Shown in pieces: positions 1-22,498 of a stretch of DNA of 22,906 bases (within the stretch, counting starts at the first letter, position 1; the number at the start of each line of letters is the position of its first letter). Under the pieces are notes generated by a model, which ran no database searches, was not told where the DNA came from, and worked only from the letters and a program-made list of their open reading frames with translations. The position numbers and the translations under genes were made by a program. Origin of the DNA: a virus; the IMG/VR virus record IMGVR_UViG_3300035211_000102. The stretch is one strand, 5' to 3'.

Positions 1-124
1 GTGCTCATAAAAGCATTTCTGGCCCATCTTTCCCTCCTTCATCTTCACTCAGCTTCGCAACCAGTAACTTTATTCTTGACTGCGCCCGCTCCTCGGACTT
101 CACCTTCTCTTCGTAATCCTCCGG

Positions 125-1804
125 CTAGTCCCCCATGAGTCCGATGAACTGCCCTGTCTTGACTCCTAGAATGTCAAGTATTATCTCGTCATACCCACTC
201 CTTGACACACAGTAATAACTAGGAACATCTTTTACTGTTTTGTCAACACCAATTCTTGCTATTCTAGTCTCCGCCTGAGAATGAATCGCCGGACTATAAT
301 CCAACTCAGCAAACACACAACATGTCGCCCGATATTGCAACCCATCAAGACCAGCCGCCGACCTCAAACTCAACACCACGACATCCGTCTTCCGGTCCAA
401 GAACGACCGGACCGCCTTGTCCTTCTGGTTCTGCGTCTGCTTCCCTGTGATAAACACAGGCCCATATTTCGCCAGACACTCTGCCAATATCTTATGAACG
501 TCATGGTGCCACGCATATACGAGAGGTTTCTCTCCCGCCTCGACAAGCGAAGCAACGAAATCAGCAACGTACCGAGCCTTCGCAACCCCAGCCGCCCTCC
601 GCGTCTCCCCCTCGACCTCTCTGGCAAGTCGCCCCTTTTCCGTGAACGATGCCGTCAACCACGTTTTCGCCTTCTTTTTCGCCGATTCAATCAGCGAGTC
701 ATACAGATCGTCATCTTGTTGCAGATCCTTCACCATACGAGAAATCGGAGGGATGTCCATTTGAACATTCTCGTATCGTCTTCTCAACAATAACCCCTCG
801 CGCACCAGGTGACCATTTAAAGCCTTCGGATCTGATACTATCTTCTCCCCGTACCCAGTGCACCACTCCCGCGTGAAGGCGTCCCTGGAGCCCAGGCAGT
901 GAAATTCAAGGGAGTTCATGACCGACCAAATTTCAGCCCCATACCCATATACTGGAGTTCCCGAAGCCGCAAAAACATACTCAGCGTCCGATGACAAAAC
1001 AGACGCCGCAGAATACTTTGCAGTGCTCCCATGGCGAAGCTCTTGCACCTCGTCAAATATCACAGTCGGAAATACCTTCTCTCTCAACGCATCGGTCCAC
1101 CACGACAGAAGCCCGTAATGAATGATCGCGAACGGCGTGTCCGGAATGTCGTACGGCGTCCTGCTCTTCAGAATCGGCGCAAGAACCTTGCCCCTTTTTA
1201 TCGAAACATCAAAATCGGTATCGTACAAATCCCGATTGTAGTCACACGGGAGATCGAACAGCGCCCCGATGGCCCGTTGCCATTGCAACTGAACATGCGT
1301 CTGGCACACGACAAGAATTGGGTACTTCCCGGCTTGAGCCCCCGCCGCCAACGCACTCCAGGTTTTCCCGAGCCCCATACTATCCCCGAGCAGCGCTCGC
1401 ATGTTCTTCACAAGAAACGTCACCGCCGTCTCCTGGTACGGGAATAGTTTCCCTATGAATTCCGGAGGAGGTGTCGTCCGCTTCAAATCGACCCCACTGA
1501 TCCGACTCTGCCACTTTGTGACAGCCTTCTCCTTGTGCTTCTCGAACTGCTCCGGACACAGGATCTCCAGCGGAAACCGCATCATGAGCCAGTTCAGATC
1601 CCCGATCTCCCTGGTCGATCCCCCGAACAGGACCGCCGCGTCATTCCCGCGCCATGAAGTGCACCCTGGGAATACCCGCTTCGCGTACTCCAACACGATT
1701 GGCTCCCCCCTCAAGACGAACTTCCCCTTCGCGAACTTGAGTTCGCCATACTTGTGACCGGTGTTCGATGCGTCTTTTAGGTAATCAGGGATCTCTCTTT
1801 CCAC
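125..1804 (-). CDS. SNF2/RAD54-family DEAD/DEAH-box helicase (ATPase)
   Basis: 559-aa ORF. SNF2 N-terminal signature LFPYQETAVTFL, Walker A GDSMGLGKT, motif II IFDEVQEL, helicase-C motifs LSLRSAAGLDGLQ and QAETRIARIG. The start is GTG at 1804 and the first ATG lies far inside, so the 5' end is uncertain. Confidence 0.85.
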   Translation of the reverse strand: MEREIPDYLKDASNTGHKYGELKFAKGKFVLRGEPIVLEYAKRVFPGCTSWRGNDAAVLFGGSTREIGDLNWLMMRFPLEILCPEQFEKHKEKAVTKWQSRISGVDLKRTTPPPEFIGKLFPYQETAVTFLVKNMRALLGDSMGLGKTWSALAAGAQAGKYPILVVCQTHVQLQWQRAIGALFDLPCDYNRDLYDTDFDVSIKRGKVLAPILKSRTPYDIPDTPFAIIHYGLLSWWTDALREKVFPTVIFDEVQELRHGSTAKYSAASVLSSDAEYVFAASGTPVYGYGAEIWSVMNSLEFHCLGSRDAFTREWCTGYGEKIVSDPKALNGHLVREGLLLRRRYENVQMDIPPISRMVKDLQQDDDLYDSLIESAKKKAKTWLTASFTEKGRLAREVEGETRRAAGVAKARYVADFVASLVEAGEKPLVYAWHHDVHKILAECLAKYGPVFITGKQTQNQKDKAVRSFLDRKTDVVVLSLRSAAGLDGLQYRATCCVFAELDYSPAIHSQAETRIARIGVDKTVKDVPSYYCVSRSGYDEIILDILGVKTGQFIGLMGD

Positions 1805-1808
1805 GTCT

Positions 1809-2057
1809 TCAGCCTATTCTCCTCTTCAGTTCAGCAAAAATCTCATCCGCAACCCACGGAATCACTAAAAACCAATAGTCAACGGAACACCCAATCATCT
1901 TAGCCTCAAACCTGAACGTCCCTCCTTTTTTAGGCACAATATTCCATCCTCTTCGAAACATCCGACAACAGTTAAACTCATGATGCCCTGGCTTATGCAT
2001 TACCGCATCAGACTCTGCACCTACTATTATCTTACATTTCATATCGTCATCCCCCAA
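1809..2057 (-). CDS. hypothetical small Cys-containing protein
   Basis: 82-aa ORF filling the gap between the nuclease and helicase genes on the same strand; it overlaps the upstream gene by about 19 nt. No recognisable motif. Confidence 0.35.
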   Translation of the reverse strand: MGDDDMKCKIIVGAESDAVMHKPGHHEFNCCRMFRRGWNIVPKKGGTFRFEAKMIGCSVDYWFLVIPWVADEIFAELKRRIG

Positions 2058-2407
2058 TTCGAAGACAAAGAGACATACTTCACCGGCTTCCCGTTCGCTT
2101 CGTTCAGGTGCTGTACAAGTCCGCGCTCCGACACGAGGATCACAGCATTCACTTTGTCGCTGTTCGCGTACCGCCGAATCTGGGCCGCCACTGCCCTCGC
2201 GTTCGGCTTCCCCTTCTTGACCTCGATTACGATCCCACCGTAGGCCAGGATGTCAACCCGACACCCCGGCGAAACAGTCACTTCCCTTGCGAATGAAATT
2301 TTGGCTTCTGCGATTCGCTTCTCTACTTCGGACACGATCTCTGACTCAAGCCGGACGACCCCGATCCGTATCGATTTTAGGATTGAAAGGATGCTCTCTA
2401 CAGACAT
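2039..2407 (-). CDS. PD-(D/E)xK nuclease, Hjc/VRR-NUC-like (putative Holliday-junction resolvase)
   Basis: 122 aa. The core GCRVDILAY-x9-IVIEVKKGK matches the D...(D/E)xK catalytic signature of archaeal Hjc / VRR-NUC nucleases. It lies directly upstream of the SNF2 helicase, a common phage pairing. Confidence 0.6.
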   Translation of the reverse strand: MSVESILSILKSIRIGVVRLESEIVSEVEKRIAEAKISFAREVTVSPGCRVDILAYGGIVIEVKKGKPNARAVAAQIRRYANSDKVNAVILVSERGLVQHLNEANGKPVKYVSLSSNWGMTI

Positions 2408-2483
2408 CAGCCAACCATCCGTTCAGCTTCAAAACCACTGTCAACCCCCCCATCTTATCAGAACAAAAATACCCTGCAAGCCA

Positions 2484-2726
2484 CTATTCACCTGAAACTT
2501 TTTTTCTCCGGACAATCAGCATCCATCTTCCGTCCTTCTCTCGCTGCTTGAAGTATCCCTTCTTCTCTGTGTAACGCACTCTATCCCGAACAGCATTTAC
2601 CGTCACCCCGAGATCTTCCGCTGCTTTTCTCAGCGTTGGCCAGTAACCGAAAGAATTGTAATGCTTCCGCCAGTAATCAATCGTCTCCAATTGGACCCGT
2701 GTCAATGGCGCAGCCATCAATCCCAA
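2484..2726 (-). CDS. LexA-like winged-helix DNA-binding protein (no S24 peptidase domain)
   Basis: 80 aa. LTRVQLETIDYWRKHY...GYWPTLRKAAEDLGVTVNAVRDRVRYTEKKGY parallels the LexA N-terminal DNA-binding domain pattern (LT.rQ.e.....H....G..PT.rE.A..LG....NA....L..KG). Confidence 0.6.
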   Translation of the reverse strand: MGLMAAPLTRVQLETIDYWRKHYNSFGYWPTLRKAAEDLGVTVNAVRDRVRYTEKKGYFKQREKDGRWMLIVRRKKVSGE

Positions 2727-2983
2727 CTCACACGAAATTTCAGGACCTTCACATCCTTCGGGATGTCCTCGACCTTCACCTCGATCCCATCAATCATCTC
2801 TTCCTTGAATTTCCGGTGAAGAATGTCGACCTGAACCCCGTCCGGGCATGGCTCCTTATTGTCGAAAAAGTCCAAAACCTCCTTCGGAACCGAAACATCG
2901 TTCTCGCGACACGTGTCCAGAACCTTCTTCATCTTCTTCCATTTCTCATCAGGAAGCTTTATTCCTTCAATGTAAATACACAT
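2717..2983 (-). CDS. hypothetical protein
   Basis: 88-aa ORF on the coding strand, overlapping the downstream gene by 10 nt. No motif recognised. Confidence 0.4.
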   Translation of the reverse strand: MCIYIEGIKLPDEKWKKMKKVLDTCRENDVSVPKEVLDFFDNKEPCPDGVQVDILHRKFKEEMIDGIEVKVEDIPKDVKVLKFRVSWD

Positions 2984-3001
2984 CTGGCCCTCTCTTTTCG
3001 A

Positions 3002-3244
3002 TTATTCGTCCAAGTCCGACTCCATGTACCTCGTCCACAATTCCAAAACCCTTCGGTATTCGTCTTCTGAGACGTCGCACTCAGTTTGGCCGCCTTCTCC
3101 GTCGAAATCACAGTCCCAAAACAGTACCATCTTGTTTTCTCTGACACCTATCCTGTAAACGGCAGAAAGACAAAAGCTTACCTCCCATCCTCCCATCGTC
3201 TTAAACGACGCAGTCTTCTTAATTTTATCAAATGGAATCCCCAC
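3002..3244 (-). CDS. hypothetical acidic protein
   Basis: 80-aa ORF, tightly packed (2-nt gap to the upstream gene). Confidence 0.4.
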   Translation of the reverse strand: MGIPFDKIKKTASFKTMGGWEVSFCLSAVYRIGVRENKMVLFWDCDFDGEGGQTECDVSEDEYRRVLELWTRYMESDLDE

Positions 3245-3245
3245 C

Positions 3246-3590
3246 TCAATCCTCTCCTTTCACAAGCGGATCATCCGCAAAGTCCATCACTCGCGTCACC
3301 CCGTCATCCCCCGTCACCTCAATAGGATTCAGCTTGAACAGCCCAAACCCTGCATAGTTGCAAGGCCCTTTCCCCCTGGTCCCAATCGTCACTTTCGACC
3401 CCTGCGACCGACCAATGCAGTTCACCCCAATTTCACCCGGATCGGCTCCAGCATCCTTGTAGTCCTTCACGCTCATCACGTTGTCGCATGATGGACACCG
3501 AAACCGGATGTCATCAATACTGGATGGGTAACGCTTCCGCGCTTCATCTCTCCACTCTTCATTCGTCAGCTTCTTTAACTCGGACATCAC
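3246..3590 (-). CDS. hypothetical CxxC-containing protein
   Basis: 114 aa. Strong RBS: AAGGAGATAGGTG precedes the ATG at 3590. Contains a CPSC...C motif. Confidence 0.55.
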   Translation of the reverse strand: MMSELKKLTNEEWRDEARKRYPSSIDDIRFRCPSCDNVMSVKDYKDAGADPGEIGVNCIGRSQGSKVTIGTRGKGPCNYAGFGLFKLNPIEVTGDDGVTRVMDFADDPLVKGED

Positions 3591-3645
3591 CTATCTCCTT
3601 TTCCCTACGTCATCCGCAATGCCTTAACCCATCAACTCTTACATT

Positions 3646-3897
3646 CTAAGTCGCCGCATGAACGACAATAAGAAAAATACCCGACAGGATCGCCAATACA
3701 CAAAGAGCCTTCACGTACCATGGCCACCTGTATGGCTTGTATGGTACGAATCCAGATTCCCGGCTGACCCTCTCCAACTCCTTCTCAACCTCCTCTGGAG
3801 ACATCTCTCCTACGTTGATATAGTGGACATGCCTCCGAGGACGTGACCACAGCTTAGACAGATCAACGTGCTCTGGTATCATCTTCTTATCAGACAT
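3646..3897 (-). CDS. small membrane protein (C-terminal TM helix)
   Basis: 83 aa with a C-terminal hydrophobic stretch YVKALCVLAILSGIFLIVVHAAT. Its ATG at 3897 is embedded in ATGTCTGA, overlapping the stop of the upstream small ORF. Confidence 0.5.
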   Translation of the reverse strand: MSDKKMIPEHVDLSKLWSRPRRHVHYINVGEMSPEEVEKELERVSRESGFVPYKPYRWPWYVKALCVLAILSGIFLIVVHAAT

Positions 3898-4069
3898 CGT
3901 CTGTCACCATCGGCTCCCACTTCATCACATAGACAGACTCACCCCGCCTTACAACAAACCGCCCCTCTGAGTCCCTCTCGTTCCTGTCGATGTCATCGGA
4001 CGTCAAAGACACGCCATCTGGCATAGAAACATTTTTATTGAACCATTTGACAAAATCATCCTTGTCCAT
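3890..4069 (-). CDS. unannotated small ORF (59 aa), hypothetical
   Basis: Not in the ORF track (<60 aa). ATG at 4069 preceded by GAGGAGGTAAGA (SD spacing 5). Translation MDKDDFVKWFNKNVSMPDGVSLTSDDIDRNERDSEGRFVVRRGESVYVMKWEPMVTDDV. Its stop TGA overlaps the next gene's ATG, and it exactly fills an otherwise unexplained 174-bp gap. Confidence 0.45.
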   Translation of the reverse strand: MDKDDFVKWFNKNVSMPDGVSLTSDDIDRNERDSEGRFVVRRGESVYVMKWEPMVTDDV

Positions 4070-4071
4070 TC

Positions 4072-4410
4072 TTACCTCCTCGGTTTTTTTCGCCTTTTCT
4101 TCGTCATCTTCGGACGGTTACGGATCGTCTTCTTTCTCGCCGCCGGACCAAGAGGTTTCAATACAAGTCTGTCTTCCTCGATTCCCGCCACCGCGTACCG
4201 GTAATTCTTCAGCTCTACCTCCTCCCCGACCCCGAATACCGCCCACGACTTCGGTACCGGCTTCCCCTGGGCGTCCAGCAGTCCCTCGTGGAACTTTCTC
4301 TTGATTGCGTCCATCGGGTCTCCAGTAGCCTCCTGAGCCTTCTGAAAGAATTCCTCCAAACTCTTCGACGGCCTGACCTCCTCAAGCATGTTCGTTACTG
4401 GATTCATCAT
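4072..4410 (-). CDS. hypothetical protein with highly basic C-terminal tail
   Basis: 112 aa. The C-terminus AARKKTIRNRPKMTKKRRKKPRR suggests nucleic-acid binding. Confidence 0.5.
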   Translation of the reverse strand: MMNPVTNMLEEVRPSKSLEEFFQKAQEATGDPMDAIKRKFHEGLLDAQGKPVPKSWAVFGVGEEVELKNYRYAVAGIEEDRLVLKPLGPAARKKTIRNRPKMTKKRRKKPRR

Positions 4411-4422
4411 TTATTTTTCCCT

Positions 4423-4857
4423 TTATTCAATCTCACTGTCATCTACAGGAAACTTCGGCACAACCGGCCTAACAAATATATCAAAAACCAACTTTCCATC
4501 GCCTGGTTTTCTGTCTTTCATTCTAATACCAGCCTCAAACACGACACCCATGTCTGGATCAAAGTTCTTGTTCCACCTCACCCTTAGAAAAGCGATATGT
4601 TCTTTTGGCCAATTCCAAACGGGAACCATACTTCTAACCAGCCTGTCTCTCGCATCATCTTCTGATAATTTCAATTTTCCACGAATGTAATCCTCACACA
4701 TGGCATACAATCCACCAATCAATTTGTCATTAATATGGATCATAGCATCGTCTGTGATCTTGCTATTCACACTCATGGATTCGCTCACGACAGGAAACCG
4801 AATCCCTTTCTGCTTCACAATCTGACTAGAATCTAAAAAATCAGGCGTCTTTCCCAT
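4423..4857 (-). CDS. hypothetical protein
   Basis: 144-aa ORF on the coding strand; no motif recognised. Confidence 0.5.
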   Translation of the reverse strand: MGKTPDFLDSSQIVKQKGIRFPVVSESMSVNSKITDDAMIHINDKLIGGLYAMCEDYIRGKLKLSEDDARDRLVRSMVPVWNWPKEHIAFLRVRWNKNFDPDMGVVFEAGIRMKDRKPGDGKLVFDIFVRPVVPKFPVDDSEIE

Positions 4858-5380
4858 TTTGATATCTCCTTAAGTCATCCGCCAGATTCTCCAGGCCATG
4901 CTTTGGACACCTTCCCTCTCCAACCTCATCACACATACATGGGCCTTCCAGTCCAACCTTCATATACCCAAGAAAAGCCTCAAGCTTCTTGCAAACTCGC
5001 CCCCTTGACACCTCATCATCTCCGTCAGGGTCTTGACTCTCAATATCTGGCAAATCAGAAAGCTCTTTCAGGCAATCCTCAATCAAAGACACCGCAAGAT
5101 TCAACCTGTCGTACACGAATAAAAAATCACACAGAGGACAATCCACGCGGCTCCACATGTTCTTATGATCATCGCAAATTCCAAGCGGATTCTTCACCTG
5201 GTACACATTCGGCACCTCTACCACCTCATTGTCTGGAAAATCTTTTTTGTACTCTTCGATATCGTATGCTTCTTCCTCGAAACCCTCCTTCACAAAATAC
5301 AGACCAGGTTGCTTATCGAACACCAGATGCCATCTTCTCTGGCCATCAATATCGGAATTTATCCAGTAAAGATTTTCCAT
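4841..5380 (-). CDS. hypothetical Cys-cluster protein
   Basis: 179 aa with CPLCD ... CMCDEVGEGRCPKHG, a possible metal-binding cluster. Confidence 0.5.
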   Translation of the reverse strand: MENLYWINSDIDGQRRWHLVFDKQPGLYFVKEGFEEEAYDIEEYKKDFPDNEVVEVPNVYQVKNPLGICDDHKNMWSRVDCPLCDFLFVYDRLNLAVSLIEDCLKELSDLPDIESQDPDGDDEVSRGRVCKKLEAFLGYMKVGLEGPCMCDEVGEGRCPKHGLENLADDLRRYQNGKDA

Positions 5381-5388
5381 ACAATCAC

Positions 5389-5616
5389 CTATCCCCTATT
5401 CTCTTTTAGTTGTCTCAGAAAATCTACAACATCATACAGACATCCACTGTTGAACACTGTACCAGCAACAGGAAAGAAACTATATTGCCGCCACGGACCG
5501 TACCACTTGACTCTTCCAAGCTCATACCCACCGTTATTACTAATACACGACCATACGGATGTCTTTGGCTTCTTTTCAACCTCAACGAAACTTATGAAAT
5601 CATATTTTGTCTGCAT
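5389..5616 (-). CDS. hypothetical protein
   Basis: 75-aa ORF overlapping the upstream gene by 17 nt. Confidence 0.35.
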   Translation of the reverse strand: MQTKYDFISFVEVEKKPKTSVWSCISNNGGYELGRVKWYGPWRQYSFFPVAGTVFNSGCLYDVVDFLRQLKENRG

Positions 5617-5971
5617 TGACTTCCACCGAATCTGCCTTGTCTCTTAGATTTTTGGCAAAGTTATTTAGATAATTACGAATCTTCGTAGCATTCTTAAGAA
5701 TAAACTCTTCGTACCTCTCAAATGAATTACATGAACATCCGAACACCATATCCCCTACCCCGTTGACCGTCATTGTCCCAATCGTGTGGTCATGTCCGAT
5801 GTACTTCTCAGGAAACTGCTTCGCCTTCTCCTCAAGATCTTCCAGCTCTCCCTCGTCATAAAAATTCCTGTCATGGAAGTAGGTGCTGAAATGGACCCTG
5901 TCGCAAATACATCTCCTCACGATGCCACCACCATGAGAATCAAAAGCGTCTTCGAATCGCTCACTTACCAT
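5600..5971 (-). CDS. hypothetical protein
   Basis: 123 aa; no recognised motif. Confidence 0.45.
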   Translation of the reverse strand: MVSERFEDAFDSHGGGIVRRCICDRVHFSTYFHDRNFYDEGELEDLEEKAKQFPEKYIGHDHTIGTMTVNGVGDMVFGCSCNSFERYEEFILKNATKIRNYLNNFAKNLRDKADSVEVNADKI

Positions 5972-6179
5972 TATTCACCTCTTCCTCCCTAACCGCATGA
6001 ATGAGTGGCCTACCATCACGCAGATCTTTCGCGCACTCTGAGCAATAATCCTTCCCTCCGACATAGATCCACCCCGTTTTTGCCGCCCTCGCCCTCGCCC
6101 GACTTACTTTCGCCTCACCATGGCCAGTCCACTTCGGACAACCATCACACCAGATCGTTGCCTGTTTACTCCAAGTCAT
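5961..6179 (-). CDS. zinc-ribbon protein (CxxC-x24-CxxC)
   Basis: 72 aa: WCDGCPKW ... YCSECAKD. Small zinc-ribbon proteins are common phage regulators. Confidence 0.45.
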   Translation of the reverse strand: MTWSKQATIWCDGCPKWTGHGEAKVSRARARAAKTGWIYVGGKDYCSECAKDLRDGRPLIHAVREEEVNNGK

Positions 6180-6198
6180 CTATCTTTCTCCTGCACAG

Positions 6199-6612
6199 CT
6201 AAATACTCCTCTTCCCCAAAATTACTGTTGAGAAATCAGGAAGTGGATCACCTTCCAGACAGCAATACAGATGGAGACACCGAGGATGGATGTTCACATG
6301 CTCATCCTTTGGAGCGAACACCATGATGCACTTCCGGTCTTCTCCGGCCCAGTGCCGCTTCAAGTACGTCAACTCATCGTACGTCGGCATGCGCCTCCGG
6401 TGTGAAATCGACAGATGAAGCCACACGCGATCATCCCCGTATAGTGCAATCGACGCCCCTACCCTCAACAACCTCTTGTGGTTGTCCCACATCCCATCCG
6501 TCATGCCTGGTCCGCCCATTACCTGCACCCACCCAGGAGGAAGTTTCTCCCCCGTCAACGGCAAGCTGTACTGCATTGCCCTCTTCCAGGATGGATCACC
6601 GAAATCCTTCAT
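6199..6612 (-). CDS. hypothetical conserved-looking protein
   Basis: 137 aa with WLHLSISHRRRMPTYDELTYLKRHWAGE. Its ATG overlaps the upstream DnaJ-like stop (4-nt ATGA). Confidence 0.5.
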   Translation of the reverse strand: MKDFGDPSWKRAMQYSLPLTGEKLPPGWVQVMGGPGMTDGMWDNHKRLLRVGASIALYGDDRVWLHLSISHRRRMPTYDELTYLKRHWAGEDRKCIMVFAPKDEHVNIHPRCLHLYCCLEGDPLPDFSTVILGKRSI

Positions 6613-7367
6613 GAATCACCAACCTTGAACAGTCCCCTCGGAATCACAGGATTGAACATCTTCACCTCTCCTATCCCATGGCACTCCTCGCACACGAGAT
6701 AGTATGGCTTTCCATCTGTCTTGATCTCCGTCGTTCCGTCCCCGAAGCATTTTTCACAGGGTATCCCCCTCCTCTGCGTTCCAGGAATATACGGAGCCGT
6801 GGACGGCATCCGAAACCCAAAACCAAATGAATCTCTCCATTGCGAACCACGTCGCTTGTTGAACGGATAGAATTTACCCGTACCCTTGCACTTATAGCAC
6901 TCCCCGATATCTTTCTTGCTCTTCGGATGGATATATCTCCCTGTCCCCTTACATCTCTCGCATGGATAGAACTTCAGCCCGTCACCGCCGCACAAGGTAC
7001 ATTGTTCAAACTTTCCAGTTCCCGTTGACATCCCAGAATATCGCTTGAACCCCAGCCCTTCACATCTTTCACACGTCCTTGCATTCTCTGTAATCGGGTA
7101 GCCCCTCCCGAGATCTGACAGTTTCTGCCCATCAATAGTATAAAGCACCTTTTTCTGATTCTCCGCTTGCCCTTCCAGCAGCTTAAATGCTGATGTAAGA
7201 GCGCCAAACTCCTCATCTGTCCCACCATGGTCTGGATGCTTATCCATCACCAGAACTCTGTATGCCTTTTTCAGCTCTGCCCTTGAAAAATTTTCAGCAA
7301 GCAAATTCCCAAACAGCTTCTTCGCCTGATCCTTGTCCATTTTTGCCATTCCCTTGAGATCAACCAT
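6609..7367 (-). CDS. DnaJ-like co-chaperone: J domain plus cysteine-rich zinc-finger (CR) domain, no C-terminal substrate-binding domains
   Basis: The J domain ELKKAYRVLVMDKHPDHGGTDEEF carries the HPD tripeptide. Six CxxCxGxG repeats follow: CERCEGLG, CTLCGGDG, CERCKGTG, CYKCKGTG, CEKCFGDG, CEECHGIG. Confidence 0.8.
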   Translation of the reverse strand: MVDLKGMAKMDKDQAKKLFGNLLAENFSRAELKKAYRVLVMDKHPDHGGTDEEFGALTSAFKLLEGQAENQKKVLYTIDGQKLSDLGRGYPITENARTCERCEGLGFKRYSGMSTGTGKFEQCTLCGGDGLKFYPCERCKGTGRYIHPKSKKDIGECYKCKGTGKFYPFNKRRGSQWRDSFGFGFRMPSTAPYIPGTQRRGIPCEKCFGDGTTEIKTDGKPYYLVCEECHGIGEVKMFNPVIPRGLFKVGDS

Positions 7368-7480
7368 TCGAAATCAGGTTTTCATCAGCCAGAACATCCA
7401 TGACCCCAGGTACCTGCCTCAAGGCCATCTCGACATCGCTCGCAGTCCCGCCCCTCGAAGCGACCAACTCGCTCAGGATC

Positions 7481-7840
7481 TCAGTTTGGGTTTTTCTTTT
7501 CCCTTTTTCTGCCATCGTGAACCCTCAGCCTCTCAGCAACGTCATCCACGGTCAGTTCTTCATCAGCAGCCAAGCACTTCAAAGCAGAAGACCTCCACTT
7601 GTCGCGACTCGCCTCACAGACACCGCTCAGCCTCTCAAGCTCTTCATGCGCCTTCTCAAGCCTTTCGAATTGAGCCTCTAGAGACCTTTCGCTCCCCTTC
7701 AGCCTCTCAAGCTCAGTGGGATCGCACCAGGATGAAAAGACAATCGCCGACAAACACACCAAAACCGCCACAACAGACAGAATGAAAGACACGAAAGTGC
7801 CTGCCCTCATCGTGATCATCCCCCTTTCTCCATCTACCAT
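7481..7840 (-). CDS. type-II membrane protein with N-terminal TM helix and coiled coil (i-spanin / FtsB-like)
   Basis: TM segment FVSFILSVVAVLVCLSAIVF followed by a coiled-coil-like stretch ELERLKGSERSLEAQFERLEKAHEELERL. No embedded lipoprotein partner was found. Confidence 0.45.
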   Translation of the reverse strand: MVDGERGMITMRAGTFVSFILSVVAVLVCLSAIVFSSWCDPTELERLKGSERSLEAQFERLEKAHEELERLSGVCEASRDKWRSSALKCLAADEELTVDDVAERLRVHDGRKREKKNPN

Positions 7841-8019
7841 GCCGGTACCTTCTCCATGATCTCCGCGAGCTTCTTCCTCTGAGGGGCGGTCAACTCTTTC
7901 CCACTGTCAAGCCTCTCCTCGATAGAGTCTAGATAGTTGATCTCCCACTCACTGAGAGATATCTTCTCGTCCTCCACCGCGTTCCTGATTGTCTCTATGT
8001 CGTCAAAGTCTGCTTTCAT
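7834..8019 (-). CDS. hypothetical acidic protein (track ORF 7834..8136, start re-assigned)
   Basis: The ATG at 8019 forms an ATGA overlap with the stop of 8016..8342. The track's longer version would overlap the upstream gene by 120 nt. Confidence 0.35.
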   Translation of the reverse strand: MKADFDDIETIRNAVEDEKISLSEWEINYLDSIEERLDSGKELTAPQRKKLAEIMEKVPAW

Positions 8020-15972: not shown

Positions 15973-16238
15973 CTTTCCTTCAGCCTTCTCAGCCTCGCGA
16001 CAATGTTCCCGGTAAATGACTCTGGTCCACCAGGGGCCTCTATCACCCCCTCTTCCTCGTCGCAATCGAATACCCCTGAATACTCGGGATCTTCCAGCAG
16101 ATCGTCTTCGTCGTAGAAAATACCGGGCGGTATCCTGAAGTCTCCATTGGGATCCTCGCTAGATAAAACACTTCTACCCACCGAAGAACTCCTGCCCCTT
16201 TCCCCAAGGAACGCCCATCTCTGTCTAGCCTTTCCCAT
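15969..16238 (-). CDS. hypothetical acidic protein whose RBS and first 18 codons are duplicated at 17855..17921
   Basis: 89 aa, starting MGKARQRWAFLGERGRSS. AGGAAA RBS 6 nt upstream of the start. Confidence 0.45.
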   Translation of the reverse strand: MGKARQRWAFLGERGRSSSVGRSVLSSEDPNGDFRIPPGIFYDEDDLLEDPEYSGVFDCDEEEGVIEAPGGPESFTGNIVARLRRLKER

Positions 16239-16250
16239 CCAAGTTTCCTA
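16185..16250. repeat. dispersed direct repeat, copy A (RBS + start + about 18 codons)
   Basis: AGAACTCCTGCCCCTTTCCCCAAGGAACGCCCATCTCTGTCTAGCCTTTCCCAT... About 90% identical to 17855..17921. Confidence 0.7.
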
Positions 16251-16274
16251 ACCGTCCAGTGAATTAATCAAACA

Positions 16275-16583
16275 TCAATCCGCGACCTGCCTCCACCCTT
16301 CTGGAGTGTATTCCCTTTGACGAAACGCTCGGTAATCCCCTGGCGGCAATGTGATAGTTGAGTGCTCATCGTGTACAATGTCTGTTGCCTCTTGAGCACG
16401 AATATAGGCGATTCCGGCCGCTACCATCAGCGCGGCCTTCGCCCCATCACTTATTCGGTGCGTATGCCCCGTAACCTCGCCACGAACGATGATCCCGGCT
16501 TCCTGCTCTTTCGCTTCTGTCGGAATTGAATCCGTTTTCACGATAAAAATGTCACCCTGTCGATACAAATTTAGCTTACCCAT
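16275..16583 (-). CDS. hypothetical protein
   Basis: ATG at 16583 (MGKLNLYRQGDIFIVK...) preceded by CAGGAGGCG and lying 1 nt after the upstream stop. The track ORF start at 16823 would overlap the upstream gene by 240 nt. Confidence 0.5.
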   Translation of the reverse strand: MGKLNLYRQGDIFIVKTDSIPTEAKEQEAGIIVRGEVTGHTHRISDGAKAALMVAAGIAYIRAQEATDIVHDEHSTITLPPGDYRAFRQREYTPEGWRQVAD

Positions 16584-16584
16584 C

Positions 16585-17877
16585 TCACGCCTCCTGTATT
16601 GGTTCGTAGTCTTTCTCTTCCTGCCATCCGGTCCATGCAACAGCCTGATGCGCTGTCGTGCACTCGGGTGGCACTCGTAATGCATAGCGTCTATTAGTGG
16701 AAGGATCCGACACAAAAACAAATTTTGCGATAGGATCTTCCCCATCGAGGTACTCCCCGAGCCGGTCCGTACTGACGAGTGTACCATATCGGTCTGTTTG
16801 CTCAGTGGTTGCCTGAAGGTCAATTAATAAACGGTCCCACCCATATCTCTCCAGCATTACTCTCCTGATCTCCTGATTGTTTTCGGTCAGAACTTTTTGT
16901 GGCGTAATCTTTTCTGGCGACTCTATCACCCACTGTGGCACACGTACTCCATGCCACGCCCAGATGCCAAATCCGTCTGCATACTCTAAAGCCCTCCTAG
17001 ATTCATGATGCAATCTGAAATTGTCATCCCGCGTGAGAAAAATTGGACGCTCCGTAAATATCACCGCGTTATCAAGCGGCCACCACCAACCAACCTCTTT
17101 GGAAAATTCAATCATCGGCCGTAACAACTGACACTCGTCCTGCAAATATTTATAAAAATAATCATAAAATGACAGCCAACTCGAATCATGAATTCCATAT
17201 CCACATCTATGCACCTGATCCAAGACCTGATCCTTGACCTGATCCTTGACCTGAGCCTTGACTTGATCCCAGACCTGACCCCAGACCTGTTCCCTAACCT
17301 GATCCCAGACCTTAGCCCTGACCTGATCCCTGACCTGAGACTTGACCTGAGCCCATACCTGATCCCAGACCTGACCCCCTACTTGATCCCAGACCTGATC
17401 CTTGACCTGAGCCATAACTTGATCCCCGACCTGATCCCCGACCTGATCCCAGACCTGACCCCAGACCTGATCCCCGACTTGATCCCAGACCTGACCCAAG
17501 ACCTGAGCCATGACCTTATCCCCGACCTTATCCCTGACCTTATCCCTGACCTGATCCTCGACCTGAGCCCCGACCTGAGCCCAGACCTGATCCTTGACCT
17601 GAGCCATAACTTGATCCCTGGCCTTATCCTCGACCTTGCCCAGCAATACAGATCCAATCCACCCCGCTATCGGAGAGGATAACCATATTTTAATTTTTGG
17701 TGGTTCTAGCCCCGCCGACTGATAAACTGGATCAATCAGCCGTTCGCATTTTTTCCGATCACATGGTCCAGTCTGGAGACCTATTTTCAGCCATCGCTCC
17801 CGGACTCTCTGCATTCTATCTACTTGTTCCTCGTTCAATTCCGTCAATATCATCAGAACTCCTGCCCCTTTCCCCAA
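16585..17877 (-). CDS. tetrapeptide-repeat protein (x-Q-V-x)35 flanked by unique N- and C-terminal domains
   Basis: 430-aa track ORF (TTG start). About 140 central residues are in-frame [D/A/G]-Q-V-[W/K/R/M/G/E/L] repeats. The unique C-terminal domain contains WAWHGVRVPQWV...RVPPECTTAHQAVAWTGW. The true start may be the ATG at 17853 or a reinitiation ATG just after an upstream uORF. Confidence 0.6.
   Translation of the reverse strand: MGKGAGVLMILTELNEEQVDRMQRVRERWLKIGLQTGPCDRKKCERLIDPVYQSAGLEPPKIKIWLSSPIAGWIGSVLLGKVEDKARDQVMAQVKDQVWAQVGAQVEDQVRDKVRDKVGDKVMAQVLGQVWDQVGDQVWGQVWDQVGDQVGDQVMAQVKDQVWDQVGGQVWDQVWAQVKSQVRDQVRAKVWDQVREQVWGQVWDQVKAQVKDQVKDQVLDQVHRCGYGIHDSSWLSFYDYFYKYLQDECQLLRPMIEFSKEVGWWWPLDNAVIFTERPIFLTRDDNFRLHHESRRALEYADGFGIWAWHGVRVPQWVIESPEKITPQKVLTENNQEIRRVMLERYGWDRLLIDLQATTEQTDRYGTLVSTDRLGEYLDGEDPIAKFVFVSDPSTNRRYALRVPPECTTAHQAVAWTGWQEEKDYEPIQEA
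17217..17636. repeat. 35 contiguous copies of a 12-bp tandem repeat (plus-strand consensus GATCCYWGACCT)
   Basis: Directly visible in the sequence, e.g. gatccttgacct gatccttgacct gagccttgactt gatcccagacct ... The units are in frame, so the other two frames are open as well. Confidence 0.9.
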
Positions 17878-17921
17878 GGAAAGCCAACCTCTGTCTAGCC
17901 TTTTCCATCAAAATTTTCCTA
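17855..17921. repeat. dispersed direct repeat, copy B
   Basis: AGAACTCCTGCCCCTTTCCCCAAGGAAAGCCAACCTCTGTCTAGCCTTTTCCAT... This copy encodes a 30-aa uORF MEKARQRLAFLGERGRSSDDIDGIERGTSR in a different frame from the repeat-protein ORF. Confidence 0.7.
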
Positions 17922-17966
17922 TATTTTCATTGGATCTTCCTCTTACTCATGACGGCATCTCGTCGC

Positions 17967-18008
17967 CAATCTACACGCTAAATCTAATACACCCCAGTGC
18001 GTTTGTCA
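17967..18008 (-). promoter_or_regulatory. sigma70-like promoter, TTGACA-N17-TAGATT
   Basis: Minus-strand sequence TGTTGACAAACGCACTGGGGTGTATTAGATTTAGCGTGTAGATTGG. -35 at 18003-18008, -10 at 17980-17985, with a second TAGATT 7 nt further on. It overlaps the stop of the ASCH gene and lies upstream of the repeat-protein gene. Confidence 0.45.
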
Positions 18009-18766
18009 ACATTTCGGTCCACCCACGCGATAATCTCCGATTTCTCTGCCGGGATCCTCTTAAACTTTACCACCCACACCCACGGATTGCTCTCCCATGG
18101 AGCCCCACGATCCTTGTTGATCTCATCCCACTTCGCAGCGAATGCATCAACAGCATCCGATCCTGTTCCATACTTCTGGTAGGATTCAATTGAAGTGAAC
18201 TCACCATGGCTGAACTCAGGAAACCCCTCGGCAATGGCCCCTTGGTGCGTGATGTCATGAACCCGCTCGGCCCACACATCCTCGACGTCGAGAAAAATCC
18301 GAGCCATCCACTTGCACATGAACATCGAAGTGCGCCATTTCCCACGAGTTGAAATCACAGATGGACACTCTCTGAGCCCACGGCCATCTGGCCAAGAACA
18401 TTCTTCATCAGCCCTATACCAAACCGGAGGAGGAGACAGGTAAATTCCCTTGTCCCAGATAAGCCGTGGAGGACGGTCGTCGAAAAACTCGCCAGCCGCC
18501 CAGTTCTCCTTGACCCACAGCACTTCCCCCTTCTTGTACGGCTTCTTGATTACCTGCTCATCCCCCGGAACGCTCATCCTGTTGAACGACTCACGATCCT
18601 TCCTGACGCCGATCAGGACCCCGTCGTGGTCGACACTGAACATGTCAAATCTTGAGTGTCCACGGATGAGTCTCCGCGTCTCTGTCTTCTCCACGGAAAG
18701 AACCTTCAGGACAAGCTCTGGAACAAACGGGATCGGAACCATGCGCCTTCCTGTCAAGTCGAACAT
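17984..18766 (-). CDS. ASCH-domain (PUA-like) protein
   Basis: 260 aa. The N-terminal ELVLKVLSVEKTETRR matches the ASCH hallmark (L.G.KT.E.R). Confidence 0.55.
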   Translation of the reverse strand: MFDLTGRRMVPIPFVPELVLKVLSVEKTETRRLIRGHSRFDMFSVDHDGVLIGVRKDRESFNRMSVPGDEQVIKKPYKKGEVLWVKENWAAGEFFDDRPPRLIWDKGIYLSPPPVWYRADEECSWPDGRGLRECPSVISTRGKWRTSMFMCKWMARIFLDVEDVWAERVHDITHQGAIAEGFPEFSHGEFTSIESYQKYGTGSDAVDAFAAKWDEINKDRGAPWESNPWVWVVKFKRIPAEKSEIIAWVDRNVDKRTGVY

Positions 18767-19949: not shown

Positions 19950-20223
19950 CCTTCTGCTCCTTCGGAAACATCTCCTTGCATTTATCAAGAAAATCCTCTG
20001 GCTCAACATCTTTCCATTCCTCCCGGATCAGACTCAGATCGTCGAAATACGAAAGAACCCCAGTGCTCCACAGTACCAGCTTCGCAAATTTCAAATTCGG
20101 GAAGAACTTCGAAGGCGGCATCCCCGTGTTCATCCATTTCACATGGCTAGCATTCTCAATGTCTTTCAAAAGAACTGGATGCATCTTCGTGAAACAGACT
20201 ACTGTATCAAGACCCACCATCAT
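19933..20223 (-). CDS. hypothetical protein
   Basis: 96-aa ORF on the coding strand. Confidence 0.4.
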   Translation of the reverse strand: MMVGLDTVVCFTKMHPVLLKDIENASHVKWMNTGMPPSKFFPNLKFAKLVLWSTGVLSYFDDLSLIREEWKDVEPEDFLDKCKEMFPKEQKDEKRS

Positions 20224-20415: not shown

Positions 20416-21019
20416 TCATGCCCAACGCCTCACCTCTTCGCATTTTGGACACCTTCCACACCTCGATCCATTCGCCCTCGGATTTTCGCATGACCACCAA
20501 CAATGATCTGGTACCATTGCCTTTTTCAGGTCACCGATTATCTCTCTCTTGGTTTTCCATTCGAAGGGGAACTTGACCTCCGCACTGACCCCCTTCAGTG
20601 CCATCAGCGCATCGAACGCACTGACAAACTCGTGTCTGTAATGCCACATCGCATCACCCTTGATGTAAGCAAACATCACCACATCATCATCGGTGATGCA
20701 CTGAGCAATAGCCACCAACCAGATCCACATCTGTCCAGGAGGTCCAGCCTCCGACGGACCCTTGGCATCAAAGCTCCCCCCCGAACTCAATCTCCTGTGT
20801 CCTGATCCAGTACCCCTTCTTCCTAGCGAGGTCCAGGTATCTTTCCCTTGCCTTTTTCTCGGCAGACAGCTGGGTGTCCCTCAGATTTGGATATGACGAA
20901 ATCGATATTGCATGCACCGGGTAATCTTTCGACGAAACACCCGCATAATATTCGAGCAAGGCCGTTGAGTCGGCCCCACCTGACCAAACTATTACATTTC
21001 TTCCCATGAGCTTACCCAT
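20416..21019 (-). pseudogene. queC: QueC-like PP-loop ATPase (7-cyano-7-deazaguanine synthase family) interrupted by a +1 frameshift in a G7 run
   Basis: N-terminal part (track ORF 20768..21103): NVIVWSGGADSTALL is the SGGxDS PP-loop. C-terminal part (track ORF 20416..20790): CWWSCENPRANGSRCGRCPKC is the QueC-type Cys4 zinc site. The two frames meet at GGGGGGG (coding strand, plus-strand positions 20776-20782), and deleting one G fuses them. Likely start: ATG at 21019 with a GAGGTG RBS. Confidence 0.65.
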
Positions 21020-21054
21020 CCGGATGCCACCTCTTGCCATATAACGTGACCATT

Positions 21055-21309
21055 CTATGCTTTGCTGTAATCCACAGCCTTCTTGACGAACCCGAAACAC
21101 CACTCGTCCTCCGGCATGACCGGAAAAAAACCGGCCGACCCGGGCCGCTCAGACTTCGGAGGCCGCGCCTTGCAGAACCCATACCGCTTCTTCGACGCGA
21201 CAACGATCCCGAGAGTGGACAGCTTCAAATCCTTGTTGTGCTCCCACGCTCCGCAATCCTCACAGAACCCTTTGAATCCCCATGGCATCTCCTTGTCAGG
21301 CTCTCTCAT
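21055..21309 (-). CDS. hypothetical Cys-containing protein
   Basis: 84 aa: FCEDCGAWEHNKD. Confidence 0.4.
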   Translation of the reverse strand: MREPDKEMPWGFKGFCEDCGAWEHNKDLKLSTLGIVVASKKRYGFCKARPPKSERPGSAGFFPVMPEDEWCFGFVKKAVDYSKA

Positions 21310-22304: not shown

Positions 22305-22341
22305 ATATCCCATAACATTCAAATTGACCCAAATTGGTCAA
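22305..22341 (-). promoter_or_regulatory. near-palindromic TTGACC-N6-GGTCAA element / promoter-like -35 (variant of the TGTTGACAA box)
   Basis: Minus-strand sequence CTGTTGACCAATTTGGGTCAATTTGAATGTTATGG. It lies in the untranslated stretch (overlapping the 3' end of the small ORF below) upstream of the gene starting at 22275. Confidence 0.3.
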
Positions 22342-22498
22342 CAGACAACTCCTCATCACCTACAATGTTTTCGAGCTTCTTTGCCTTCGCGGTTATCTCA
22401 GCTATCCTCCTCATGGCGCAATCGGCCTCTTCCGGATTCGTCCGAGGGTCGCTCGCGACAGCGACAAGCTTCTCCAGTAGCTTCGAGTAATCCATCAT
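22319..22498 (-). CDS. unannotated small ORF (59 aa), hypothetical
   Basis: MMDYSKLLEKLVAVASDPRTNPEEADCAMRRIAEITAKAKKLENIVGDEELSVDQFGSI. Starts 17 nt after the stop of 22516..22752 and fills a 240-bp gap. The RBS is weak (GGCGGAAG). Confidence 0.35.
   Translation of the reverse strand: MMDYSKLLEKLVAVASDPRTNPEEADCAMRRIAEITAKAKKLENIVGDEELSVDQFGSI

Follow-up and report, generated by a model that had tools for sequence, protein, structure and literature searches.

Early promoters of the host type are ordinary in phages, the classical examples read by host sigma70 being lambda PL, whose -35 region reads GTGTTGACATAAA, and the T5 and T7 A promoters. Stem-loops in 5' leaders that stabilise mRNA or aid translation are known from the T7 phi10 leader, the ompA 5' hairpin and the Bacillus 5' stabilisers. 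The asymmetric repressor sites of mycobacteriophage L5 contain TGTCAA, and most stoperators of the cluster A mycobacteriophages are not promoters. Promoter and stem-loop come together in the promoter-early stem-loop (PeSL) cassettes of T4-type phages (Arbiol et al. 2010, PMC2839356; Comeau et al. 2014, PMC4122927), defined by the presence of both elements in one intergenic motif that ends at the Shine-Dalgarno (SD) sequence and ATG of the next gene (PMC2839356). The PeSL stem-loop is built on G/C tracts (GGGG...CCCC), acts as a terminator, and varies in its position relative to the start site: upstream of it, within it or just before it (PMC2839356, PMC4122927).

We analysed a 22,906-nucleotide stretch of viral DNA (IMG/VR record IMGVR_UViG_3300035211_000102; hereafter the window), in which the 9-mer TTGTCAACA occurs in four exact copies, all on the plus strand, so that the minus (coding) strand reads TGTTGACAA (table 1). 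The preliminary description had the right number of copies, with the last one placed at 18002-18010 instead of 18003-18011. Its chance expectation of fewer than 0.1 copies was slightly low, as dinucleotide shuffles give a mean of 0.20, but the over-representation stands, since four copies were reached in none of 100 shuffles. With one mismatch allowed, the enrichment in the window is weak (11 matches against 5.7 expected). The sigma70 -35 consensus TTGACA, said to lie inside each copy, is indeed exact in all four. A conserved cassette composed of a predicted promoter and an RNA hairpin, common to many related metagenomic phages, includes two of the four copies. Our comparison identifies PeSL as its closest known kind, of which the cassette appears to be a variant not previously described.

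Table 1. Motif copies and associated features in the window.
Feature	Position	Strand	Details
Cassette 1, composite promoter-leader	17942..18021	-	58.1 bits with the cassette model; promoter scan 10/12
Cassette 1, extended -35 TGTTGACAA	18003-18011	-	hexamer 18004-18009; A-rich tract upstream
Cassette 1, -10 TAGATT	17981-17986	-	spacer 17; overlaps TAG stop of ORF 17984-18766
Cassette 1, box 2 TAGATT	17968-17973	-	at predicted transcript 5' end
Cassette 1, hairpin TGGCG-ACGAGATGC-CGTCA	17950-17968	-	
Cassette 2, composite promoter-leader	8293..8373	-	55.3 bits with the cassette model; promoter scan 11/12
Cassette 2, extended -35 TGTTGACAA	8355-8363	-	hexamer 8356-8361
Cassette 2, -10 TATTAT	8332-8337	-	spacer 18
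Cassette 2, box 2 GAGATT	8319-8324	-	
Cassette 2, hairpin CAGAGC-GAGAT-GTTCTG	8302-8318	-	6-bp stem, including one G.U pair
Plain promoter, no leader hairpin	14568..14599	-	-35 TGTTGACAA 14591-14599; -10 TAAAAA 14568-14573
Fourth exact 9-mer copy	240..248	-	within the SNF2 helicase gene (125-1804), at its 3' end
One-mismatch variant TGTTGACCA	22335..22343	-	last codons of ORF 22319-22498

The earlier reading of the motif as promoter-like sites ahead of minus-strand genes agrees with three of the four copies, on the strength of conserved architecture, strand and position in relatives. Their -10 elements were located correctly at cassette 2 and at the plain promoter and one nucleotide off at cassette 1; TAGATT and TAAAAA are individually weak. 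These sites had been said to lie in the only sizeable intergenic gaps, which is approximately correct: they fill the three largest true gaps, and smaller gaps of 51-76 nt exist without the motif (2408-2483, 3591-3645, 11324-11374). A generic promoter scan of the whole window finds no more sites than shuffles do (18 found, 16.8 expected); its two best sigma70-type matches are the sites at 18009 (cassette 1) and 8361 (cassette 2). The combination of promoter and hairpin at these two sites had been overlooked, and is the more interesting feature of the locus.

Cassette 1 has its -35 within the last codons of the upstream ORF 17984-18766, and its predicted promoter would drive a block that starts with a DUF6745 repeat-protein gene, the first long gene beginning ~95 nt downstream. 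It is orthologous to sites in two relatives (L001 9116 and L003 2876), the stem showing compensatory changes. Cassette 2 lies 10 nt past the stop codon of ORF 8374-8646 and ahead of a small Cys-rich gene (end 8016; start 8285 or 8261). The plain promoter occupies a 125-nt gap upstream of a DUF3268 zinc-ribbon gene (14075-14521), followed by the major-vault-protein (MVP) gene (11375-14053). It has an 18-nt spacer with TGTGTG at its end and reaches only 10.3 bits with the cassette model, the -35 part alone being matched. Its 31-nt block from -35 to -10 is identical at 29 of 31 positions to the orthologous site in L001 (9428), against ~50% in the flanks.

The remaining exact copy is a different matter. 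It had been proposed as a promoter for genes beyond the start of the window, a role that does not hold up, as the copy lies inside the helicase gene, 115 nt before its stop codon, and no TAnnnT is found at 16-18 nt spacing. The cassette model gives it 8.9 bits. A small hairpin, GTAT-GACGAGATA-ATAC, is located ~10 nt farther from the 9-mer than in true cassettes (61 nt from TTGACA to the GAT of the loop, against 47-52 nt), and the copy may represent a decayed cassette or a chance occurrence. The variant described at 22336-22345 exists, with coordinates 1-2 nt off; a gene starts downstream of it near 22266-22275, it has a weak -10 (ATGTTA or TGTTAT), and the cassette model does not detect it.

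The cassette has a constant order: an A-rich tract, tgTTGACAAA, 17 nt, TAnnnT, ~7 nt, and, where the transcript is predicted to begin, (T/G)AGAT; next come a hairpin of 5-7 bp whose RRGAT loop is conserved, an SD sequence and a start codon. Downstream of the predicted start site, the loop keeps a fixed distance of 47-52 nt from the -35. Stems vary in sequence between sites yet remain paired, while the loop sequence is conserved. Pairing is found in 72.9% of stem cells, against 52.7 +/- 4.1 in shuffles (none of 500 reaching the observed value), and the covariation score is 0.60 against 0.27 (again 0/500); registers slid along the alignment are 35-52% paired. At least six contiguous pairs form at 11 of 14 sites, compared with 4.8% of 4266 background GAT positions. 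Over 30 sites, at least five contiguous pairs are obtained in 26 when sense-strand G.U pairs are allowed, in 10 with Watson-Crick pairs only and in 11 with antisense wobble, G.U accounting for 29 of 169 stem pairs. Because the G.U pairs needed exist only on the sense strand, the hairpin is an element of the RNA (or of the non-template strand). A search of the window against Rfam 15 gave no match at gathering score; at E<=1, the same search of L004, L052, L077 and L041 returned only tRNAs and one weak YrlA-like match (L052), which does not overlap a leader.

Relatives of the phage were collected through homology of the MVP protein (56-68% identity; GC 33-46%) and not through the motif. At equivalent gene boundaries of this MVP clade we find gTTGACAAA, always in the coding-strand orientation; over 15 aligned sites TTGACA itself is invariant, and the G before it and the AA after it are invariant or nearly so. 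Across 33 sites, the first, second and sixth positions of the -10 are T in 30, A in 32 and T in 30, respectively, and the spacer measures 17 nt in 22, 16 nt in 7 and 18 nt in 4. The cassette model, run on the window and the MVP-clade relatives, yields 17 strong matches, all of them on the coding strand and all in the interval that separates one called gene's stop from the start of the next. In L095, the direction of the cassettes follows that of the genes, with a divergent back-to-back pair at the orientation switch. The assignment to sigma70-type promoters, which is predictive, rests on conserved architecture, strand and intergenic position, beyond resemblance to the consensus.

At least 11 other viral contigs of IMG/VR (33-65% GC) have the same cassette. 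The DNA patterns used for this search specified only the -35, AGAT and AAGATG, and 14 of 28 distinct matches carry stems of at least 5 bp, mostly of new sequence. In 12 of these 14, AGGAG and ATG follow directly, L084 and L086 being the exceptions. Because GTTGACAAA(C) was fixed in these patterns, they bias how conserved the extension looks outside the MVP clade. We found no cultured relatives; for the helicase, the best matches belong to unrelated phages, at ~35% identity.

How far does the likeness to PeSL go? As in PeSL, the composite motif extends between the stop codon upstream and the SD/ATG of the next gene, joins an A/T-rich tract and a consensus sigma70-like early promoter to an adjacent stem-loop with G.T pairs, and is repeated many times, mostly ahead of small genes of unknown function. 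Promoter and stem-loop share a single intergenic motif, as the PeSL definition has it (PMC2839356); no T4 hallmark gene is found in the window. In a strict PeSL scenario, the stem-loop would terminate or attenuate upstream transcription and the repeat would be a site of homologous recombination that shuffles gene cassettes. The succession of stop codon, A-rich tract, sigma70 promoter, stem-loop, SD and ATG before small ORFans agrees with this (PMC2839356), as do the variable gene order near cassettes (in the window DUF6745 and its cassette come after a 260-aa gene, in L001 after RlaP) and a 62-nt direct repeat that brackets the DUF6745 gene. However, that repeat is not the cassette itself. The order of genes near the cassettes is not the same in the window as in L001, with no junction traced to a cassette. 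In contrast to the PeSL terminator, the stem-loop here is short (5-7 bp), is not based on G/C tracts, is followed by a T-run in one orthologous group only, and sits in a fixed position downstream of the predicted start, so that it would itself be transcribed (~+6 to +23). Its stem is variable, whereas the RRGAU loop and the 5' AGAU are conserved, which suggests recognition rather than termination. We regard the strict PeSL scenario as unlikely.

A conserved-loop hairpin next to a linear box also recalls the lambda nut (boxA/boxB) and HK022 put sites, in which the loop and not the stem is conserved and which are likewise promoter-proximal and repeated at early operon starts. The leader might then equip RNA polymerase with an antitermination or processivity factor at the start of long early operons, as would suit a purine-rich conserved pentaloop fixed just past each promoter, in a window where promoters are few and all genes have the same direction for >22 kb. 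The analogy with boxA and boxB is architectural, without sequence similarity or an Rfam match, and this role seems unlikely: no gene resembling N, Q or NusG was recognised, and terminator-like sites to be overridden are not clearly above chance in the window (19 against 12.6 +/- 3.0 expected), most of them lying inside genes. Unlike nut and put sites, the cassettes are also numerous, several per 20 kb, each directly abutting the ribosome-binding site. Quite improbable, in our view, is that the 9-mer serves mainly as an operator or stoperator-like site of a DNA-binding phage regulator and overlaps a -35 only secondarily. The sites do resemble the L5-type stoperators of cluster A in being asymmetric, over-represented TGTCAA/TTGACA motifs in short intergenic gaps with one orientation to transcription; their conservation reaches past the hexamer (G before, AA(A/C) after), and the window encodes a LexA-like wHTH protein (2484-2726), which the preliminary description had suggested as binder of the extended motif. 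That suggestion finds no favour in the data: the motif is without the dyad symmetry that a wHTH dimer would need, and tblastn finds no wHTH relative in L001, L004 and L008 (the syntenic stretch being covered in L004 only). Moreover, the motif is kept in L004, L007 and L010, whose HTH gene upstream of the helicase is unrelated and of the Xre type, and it persists in phages of 33% to 65% GC. Nearly every site also has a TAnnnT at 16-18 nt, the spacing of a promoter, which a stand-alone operator would not need. Finally, the reader of the sites could be a sigma factor or RNA polymerase encoded by the phage in place of the host housekeeping sigma, given that the -35 flanks and positions +1 to +5 are more conserved than is usual in host promoters. 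The exact fit to the housekeeping consensus TTGACA-17-TAnnnT and the A-rich upstream tract argue against this, neither the window nor the examined loci showed a gene for a sigma factor or RNA polymerase, and we consider such a reader very improbable.

In this context, we put forward that TGTTGACAA is probably the extended -35 of strong sigma70/sigmaA-type promoters, by which an uncultivated large phage has the host RNA polymerase transcribe its early/replication-region genes. The holoenzyme would bind the A-rich upstream tract, TTGACA, and the TAnnnT 17 (+/-1) bp downstream, its sigma subunit presumably the housekeeping sigma70/sigmaA of the host, to judge from the consensus. Transcription is predicted to start ~7 nt after the -10 element. 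The lambda PL, T5 and T7 A promoters share the TTGACA -35, the 17-bp spacer, the TAnnnT -10, the A-rich tract and the capture of host RNA polymerase, which is predicted here; unlike in those, conservation across very different GC contents extends to the first transcribed bases and to the flanks, with G preceding the hexamer and AAAC following it. The conserved G and AA(A/C) go beyond the known need of sigma region 4, and a second reader of the -35 region is therefore possible.

The transcripts of both cassettes would open with (N)AGAU, and nucleotides ~+6 to +23 would fold into a 5-7 bp hairpin with the conserved RRGAU pentaloop, the SD and first gene usually following after ~0-15 nt and later at some sites. 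We favor the reading of the hairpin as a 5' leader element that would set mRNA stability and translation of the first gene. The T7 phi10, ompA and Bacillus leaders, which belong to highly expressed genes, similarly have a hairpin a few nucleotides from the 5' end, directly upstream of the SD, but lack a conserved loop or a conserved single-stranded 5' box. In the cassette, moreover, 4-6 nt are unpaired at the predicted 5' end, more than in a classical 5'-terminal stabiliser hairpin. Given the sequence conservation of the loop and of the 5' AGAU, the hairpin is probably also a recognition site for an RNA-binding factor acting on all such transcripts.

For the large clade of uncultivated MVP-carrying phages, the promoter model allows early transcription units to be delimited from sequence alone. 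The cassette itself, with its UP-like tract, consensus promoter, defined 5' end, hairpin and SD, appears to be a compact and portable unit over a very wide GC range, and as such may be of interest to synthetic biology. It also contributes a small, covarying, conserved-loop RNA hairpin, at a fixed distance from its promoter, that is absent from Rfam. More tentatively, the AGAU box and the 6-bp hairpin with its RRGAU pentaloop might represent a new class of phage leader RNA, the common operator of a phage- or host-encoded RNA-binding factor that coordinates stability, translation or elongation of every early transcript in a widespread uncultivated phage clade (contigs up to ~125-180 kb; hosts GC 33-65%). 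If a dedicated factor does read the hairpin, all early genes of these phages would share a new control point, acting post-transcriptionally or on elongation.

The over-represented 9-mer TTGTCAACA, from which the preliminary description started, is confirmed. Its four exact copies on the plus strand (TGTTGACAA on the minus strand; table) compare with a mean of 0.20 in dinucleotide-preserving shuffles, none of 100 of which reaches four. The signal for one-mismatch copies is weak (11 versus 5.7 expected). The variant reported earlier is present, at 22335-22343, and two of the coordinates first given were off by one. The window covers 22.9 kb of a 25.4-kb JGI metagenome contig, and its genes form an array running in one direction, with a GC skew of about -0.3 throughout. 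Since every plausible gene lies on the minus strand and all copies read on that strand, the motif is always co-oriented with genes. The strand asymmetry is very strong and uniform over the whole window, with a G-rich coding strand, and the relatives share this asymmetry, having a skew of +0.28 to +0.42 on their coding strand. The three -10 candidates previously proposed are present, and the sites with TATTAT and TAGATT score highest among sigma70-type matches in the window (11/12 and 10/12); a generic sigma70-type scan of the window is, overall, not above shuffles.

Features of the window, elements of the cassette and contigs that carry it
Feature	Coordinates	Details
SNF2 helicase gene	125-1804	
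LexA-type wHTH protein gene	2484-2726	80 aa
DnaJ-like protein gene		encoded in the window
N_methyl small proteins	8374-8740 (-)	also L004 16176-16499; L007 12939-13121; L010 16015-16197
RlaP nucleotidyltransferase gene	8754-9710	
Major vault protein (MVP) homologue	11375-14053 (-)	full length; MVP shoulder and vault repeat domains; phage-like gene array
DUF3268 zinc-ribbon gene	14075-14521	precedes the MVP gene
DUF6745 protein gene	16585-17853/17877	minus strand
Copy 240	240-248	in the helicase gene, 115 nt before its stop codon; lacks TAnnnT at 16-18 nt
Site 8361	8355-8363	10 nt past a stop codon; -10 TATTAT 8332-8337
Site 14597	14591-14599	48 nt past a stop codon; -10 TAAAAA 14568-14573
Site 18009	18003-18011	-35 in the last codons of ORF 17984-18766; -10 TAGATT 17981-17986 overlaps that ORF's stop
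Box (T/G)AG(G/A)AT		about 7 nt after the -10, predicted +1 to +6
Second RRGAT		12 nt past the box; loop of a small hairpin
Further contigs with cassettes		L041/L015, L042, L052/L095, L053, L055, L077, L082/L099, L087, L089, L101, L102

Relatives were gathered by MVP protein homology, independently of the motif (L001/L002, L003, L004-L006, L007, L008/L009 and L010, hereafter the MVP clade); their MVPs are 56-68% identical to that of the window, and their GC content is 33-46%. The sequence gTTGACAAA recurs in all of them, on the coding strand and at gene boundaries. In an alignment of 15 such sites, the G, TTGACA and AA vary little or not at all. Among 33 sites, T1 of the -10 hexamer is present in 30, A2 in 32 and T6 in 30, and the spacer measures 17 nt in 22, 16 nt in 7 and 18 nt in 4, counts that carry some selection bias because the best of three spacers was picked; an A-rich tract lies upstream of the -35. 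Site 14597 and its counterpart at 9428 in L001 are identical at 29 of 31 positions from -35 to -10, versus about half in the flanks, and site 18009 aligns with L001 9116 and L003 2876. Conservation of orthologous promoters far above their flanks is what selection on the promoter would predict. Together with the geometry, it upholds the original proposal of promoters for three of the four copies; copy 240, given its place in the helicase gene and its want of a -10, is unconvincing as a promoter.

Two more elements, a box and a second RRGAT in a hairpin loop, follow the -10 at fixed distances in most sites. The resulting cassette comprises the A-rich tract, extended -35, -10, box and hairpin, followed by a Shine-Dalgarno (SD) sequence and start codon. 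TTGACA and the loop GAT are separated by 47-52 nt in 16 of 16 sites of the window and relatives, and by 61 nt at copy 240. A covariance model trained on 15 sites and run on the window and relatives returned 17 strong matches (25-69 bits), all on the coding strand and all filling the gap from a called stop to the next start. One of them, L008 969, is outside the training set and has a new stem, TGTAGA/TCTGCA. Full cassettes occur in the window only at 17942-18021 (58 bits) and 8293-8373 (55 bits), and at 14591 and 240 the -35 part alone is matched (10.3 and 8.9 bits). The remaining gaps of the window (2408-2483, 3591-3645, 11324-11374 and 22753-22906) hold no cassette; seemingly large gaps at 16208-16584, 20010-20206 and 7841-8015 are artefacts of greedy ORF choice.

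The hairpin is supported by several measures. In a fixed-register alignment 72.9% of cells are paired, against 52.7 +/- 4.1 in shuffles (0/500), and the covariation score is 0.60 versus 0.27 (0/500). Slid registers are all 35-52% paired, and double changes occur at all six pairs. When the 1-nt shifts of register found in some loops are permitted, at least six contiguous pairs surround the loop in 11 of 14 distinct sites, compared with 4.8% of 4266 background GAT positions. Over 30 sites, stems of at least five contiguous pairs form in 26 with sense-strand G.U, in 10 with Watson-Crick pairs only and in 11 with antisense wobble; G.U accounts for 29 of 169 stem pairs. Because stem pairing needs sense-strand G.U, the structure is selected on the sense strand, and a conserved loop on stems of widely different sequence (GGCGAC, CAGAGC, GGCGGC, TTGCGG, GCGGCA, TTGGC, TGTAGA and others) points in the same direction. 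The hairpin is therefore an element of the RNA or, with lower probability, of the non-template DNA strand, and not a double-stranded palindromic operator.

Other identities for the hairpin were considered and rejected. It has no T-run, as an intrinsic terminator would, except in one orthologous group. The ATG in the box or loop was dismissed as a start codon or as part of a leader peptide, since GAT is not consistently followed by G (GATT and GATA occur) and genuine SD-ATG pairs sit downstream. Most loops are AGAU rather than GGAU, contrary to CsrA-type GGA sites; the base following GAT varies, contrary to Dam-type GATC sites; and fixed coupling to promoters opposes a REP/RAYT-like element (GTAG plus palindrome). 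Rfam holds no family matching the leader.

To gauge its spread, the cassette was sought in IMG/VR by two pattern scans that specified only the -35, AGAT and (A)AGATG, the matches then being run through the cassette model. This identified true cassettes in no fewer than 11 additional viral contigs, which range from 23 to 176 kb in length and from 33% to 65% in GC (table); a separate 24.6-kb IMG/VR record, L103, has the same cassette sequence as L099. Half of the 28 distinct pattern matches of the second scan have stems of at least 5 bp, mostly new in sequence, and AGGAG plus ATG follows directly in 12 of these 14 (not in L084 and L086). The other 14 are coding-like sequence without a stem, and serve as an internal control. 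The wider consensus reads tTGTTGACAAAC, N13, TAnnnT, N6, AGAT(G), a 6-bp stem, AAGAT, the returning stem, (A)AGGAG, N5-9 and ATG. Contig L095 has cassettes on both strands, always in gene orientation. Four of them, two per strand, lie within 1.7 kb (5160-6789), including a back-to-back divergent pair at 6098-6244, and one has TTGCAA in place of the usual -35, which shows that variation in this element is tolerated. A few small genes are common to these contigs and the MVP clade, which thus look like one broad phage lineage. A literature search for the literal motif returned unrelated primer sequences only. At 1500-9400 of the cassette-bearing L052 (IMG/VR 3300034989_000084), at least 12 tRNA genes form an array interleaved with cassettes, and 1634-1738 gives a weak Y-RNA-like (YrlA) match (37 bits versus a gathering score of 69).

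A near-identity DNA search of deposited phages gave no match for the whole window, the MVP and helicase proteins, each scanned singly against IMG/VR, gave no relative, and the MVP protein matched among deposited phages only megaphage records about 35% identical and without annotation. Tunturiibacter phage Tunturi_5 is the best cultured helicase match; the cassette model found no match in a 41.5-kb region of it. A host inferred from the MAG holding L010 was discarded, its label "uncultured archaeon" being uninformative and probably due to mis-binning. The window MVP has thousands of metagenomic homologues, some on contigs of 100-460 kb, and phage MVPs are the subject of one report (bioRxiv 10.1101/2023.11.10.566534). 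The DUF3268 zinc-ribbon gene lies directly upstream of MVP in the window, L001 and L003, and downstream of it, after RlaP, in L004, L007 and L010; RlaP is near MVP in the window and in the relatives with long enough loci (L001, L004, L007 and L010). The small N_methyl proteins, 52-87 aa long and bearing a prepilin-type N-terminal methylation motif, are conserved in the phage clade.

The helicase on the 25.4-kb sister contig has 599 aa by the JGI gene call (window equivalent 5-1804, minus strand), which in the window would need read-through of TAG 125-127; the window ORF encodes 559 aa, and its homologues terminate around residue 556. A sequence difference or calling artefact is probably the cause, rather than stop-codon recoding. 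In L007 (19622-19860 onward) the orthologous helicase, of 1040 aa, contains an intein with a LAGLIDADG homing endonuclease. The match of ORF 20416-20790 (minus strand) to QueC (queuosine biosynthesis) is confined to the latter's C-terminal third, and the overlapping upstream ORF 20768-21103 has no Pfam match; the QueC-like gene may be split or frameshifted. Within the DUF6745 gene, a tandem array at 17213-17629 (34.8 copies of a 12-nt unit, plus-strand consensus ACCTGATCCCTG) encodes about 35 four-residue x-D-Q-V repeats in the N-terminal half of the protein. A direct repeat of 62 nt flanks the gene, its two copies being 90% identical and lying 1670 nt apart. In the upstream one (17855-17916) there is a truncated ORF of 30 aa (MEKARQRLAFLGERGRSS...), and the other (16185-16246) is the start of an 89-aa ORF, 15969-16238. 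The repeat resembles a scar left by an insertion or duplication event, which would have placed DUF6745 behind the cassette.

The preliminary description had also suggested the LexA-like wHTH protein as a binder of the 9-mer, and this is not supported: dyad symmetry is absent from TGTTGACAAAC, a -10 accompanies nearly every site, and L004, L007 and L010 retain the motif with an Xre-type HTH gene upstream of the helicase instead. By tblastn the wHTH gene has no relative in L001, L004 and L008, of which only L004 extends over the syntenic region upstream of the helicase. The flanking positions outside the hexamer are genuinely conserved in the unbiased 15-site set; this could reflect a preference of the host sigma or alpha subunit, an additional factor, or homogenisation among cassettes.

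We propose that host housekeeping-sigma holoenzyme would initiate at an A/G about 7 nt past the -10, yielding an RNA that begins (N)AGAU. The hairpin would form at about +6 to +23, with a ribosome-binding site within about 0-15 nt of it in most cassettes. The predicted 18009 leader is longer, with two mini-ORFs before the first long gene, whose best start is about 95 nt past the hairpin. The preferred reading is that the hairpin acts as a leader element setting the stability and translation of the first gene. Since loop and 5' box repeat the same AGAU, an RNA-binding factor shared by all cassette transcripts probably recognises the leader as well. We consider it less probable that the leader is a nut- or put-like loading site for antitermination, given that the window has no clear terminators (terminator-like sites 19 versus 12.6 +/- 3.0) and that no N-like protein was found.

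The closest described kind is the promoter-early stem-loop (PeSL) cassette known from T4-type phages, in which an early promoter of sigma70 consensus is combined with a stem-loop; it occupies the gap from stop codon to SD/ATG and is repeated before ORFans (PMC2839356; PMC4122927). Unlike in PeSL, the present stem-loop lies within the predicted transcript at a fixed position, is short and not terminator-like, and has its conservation in the loop instead of in G/C tracts. Because of these differences in position, loop and non-terminator makeup, the cassette is only a variant of the PeSL kind and not a member. A PeSL-type terminator or recombination site is likewise a less favoured role for the hairpin, fitting neither its position nor its makeup. 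The GTGTTGACATAAA of lambda PL, nut/boxB, the 5' hairpins of T7 and ompA, and the L5 stoperators are resemblances, to be read as analogies only. Host-consensus promoters used by a phage are the ordinary part of this system; less ordinary is a conserved, covarying leader hairpin coupled to promoters across a wide uncultivated phage lineage.
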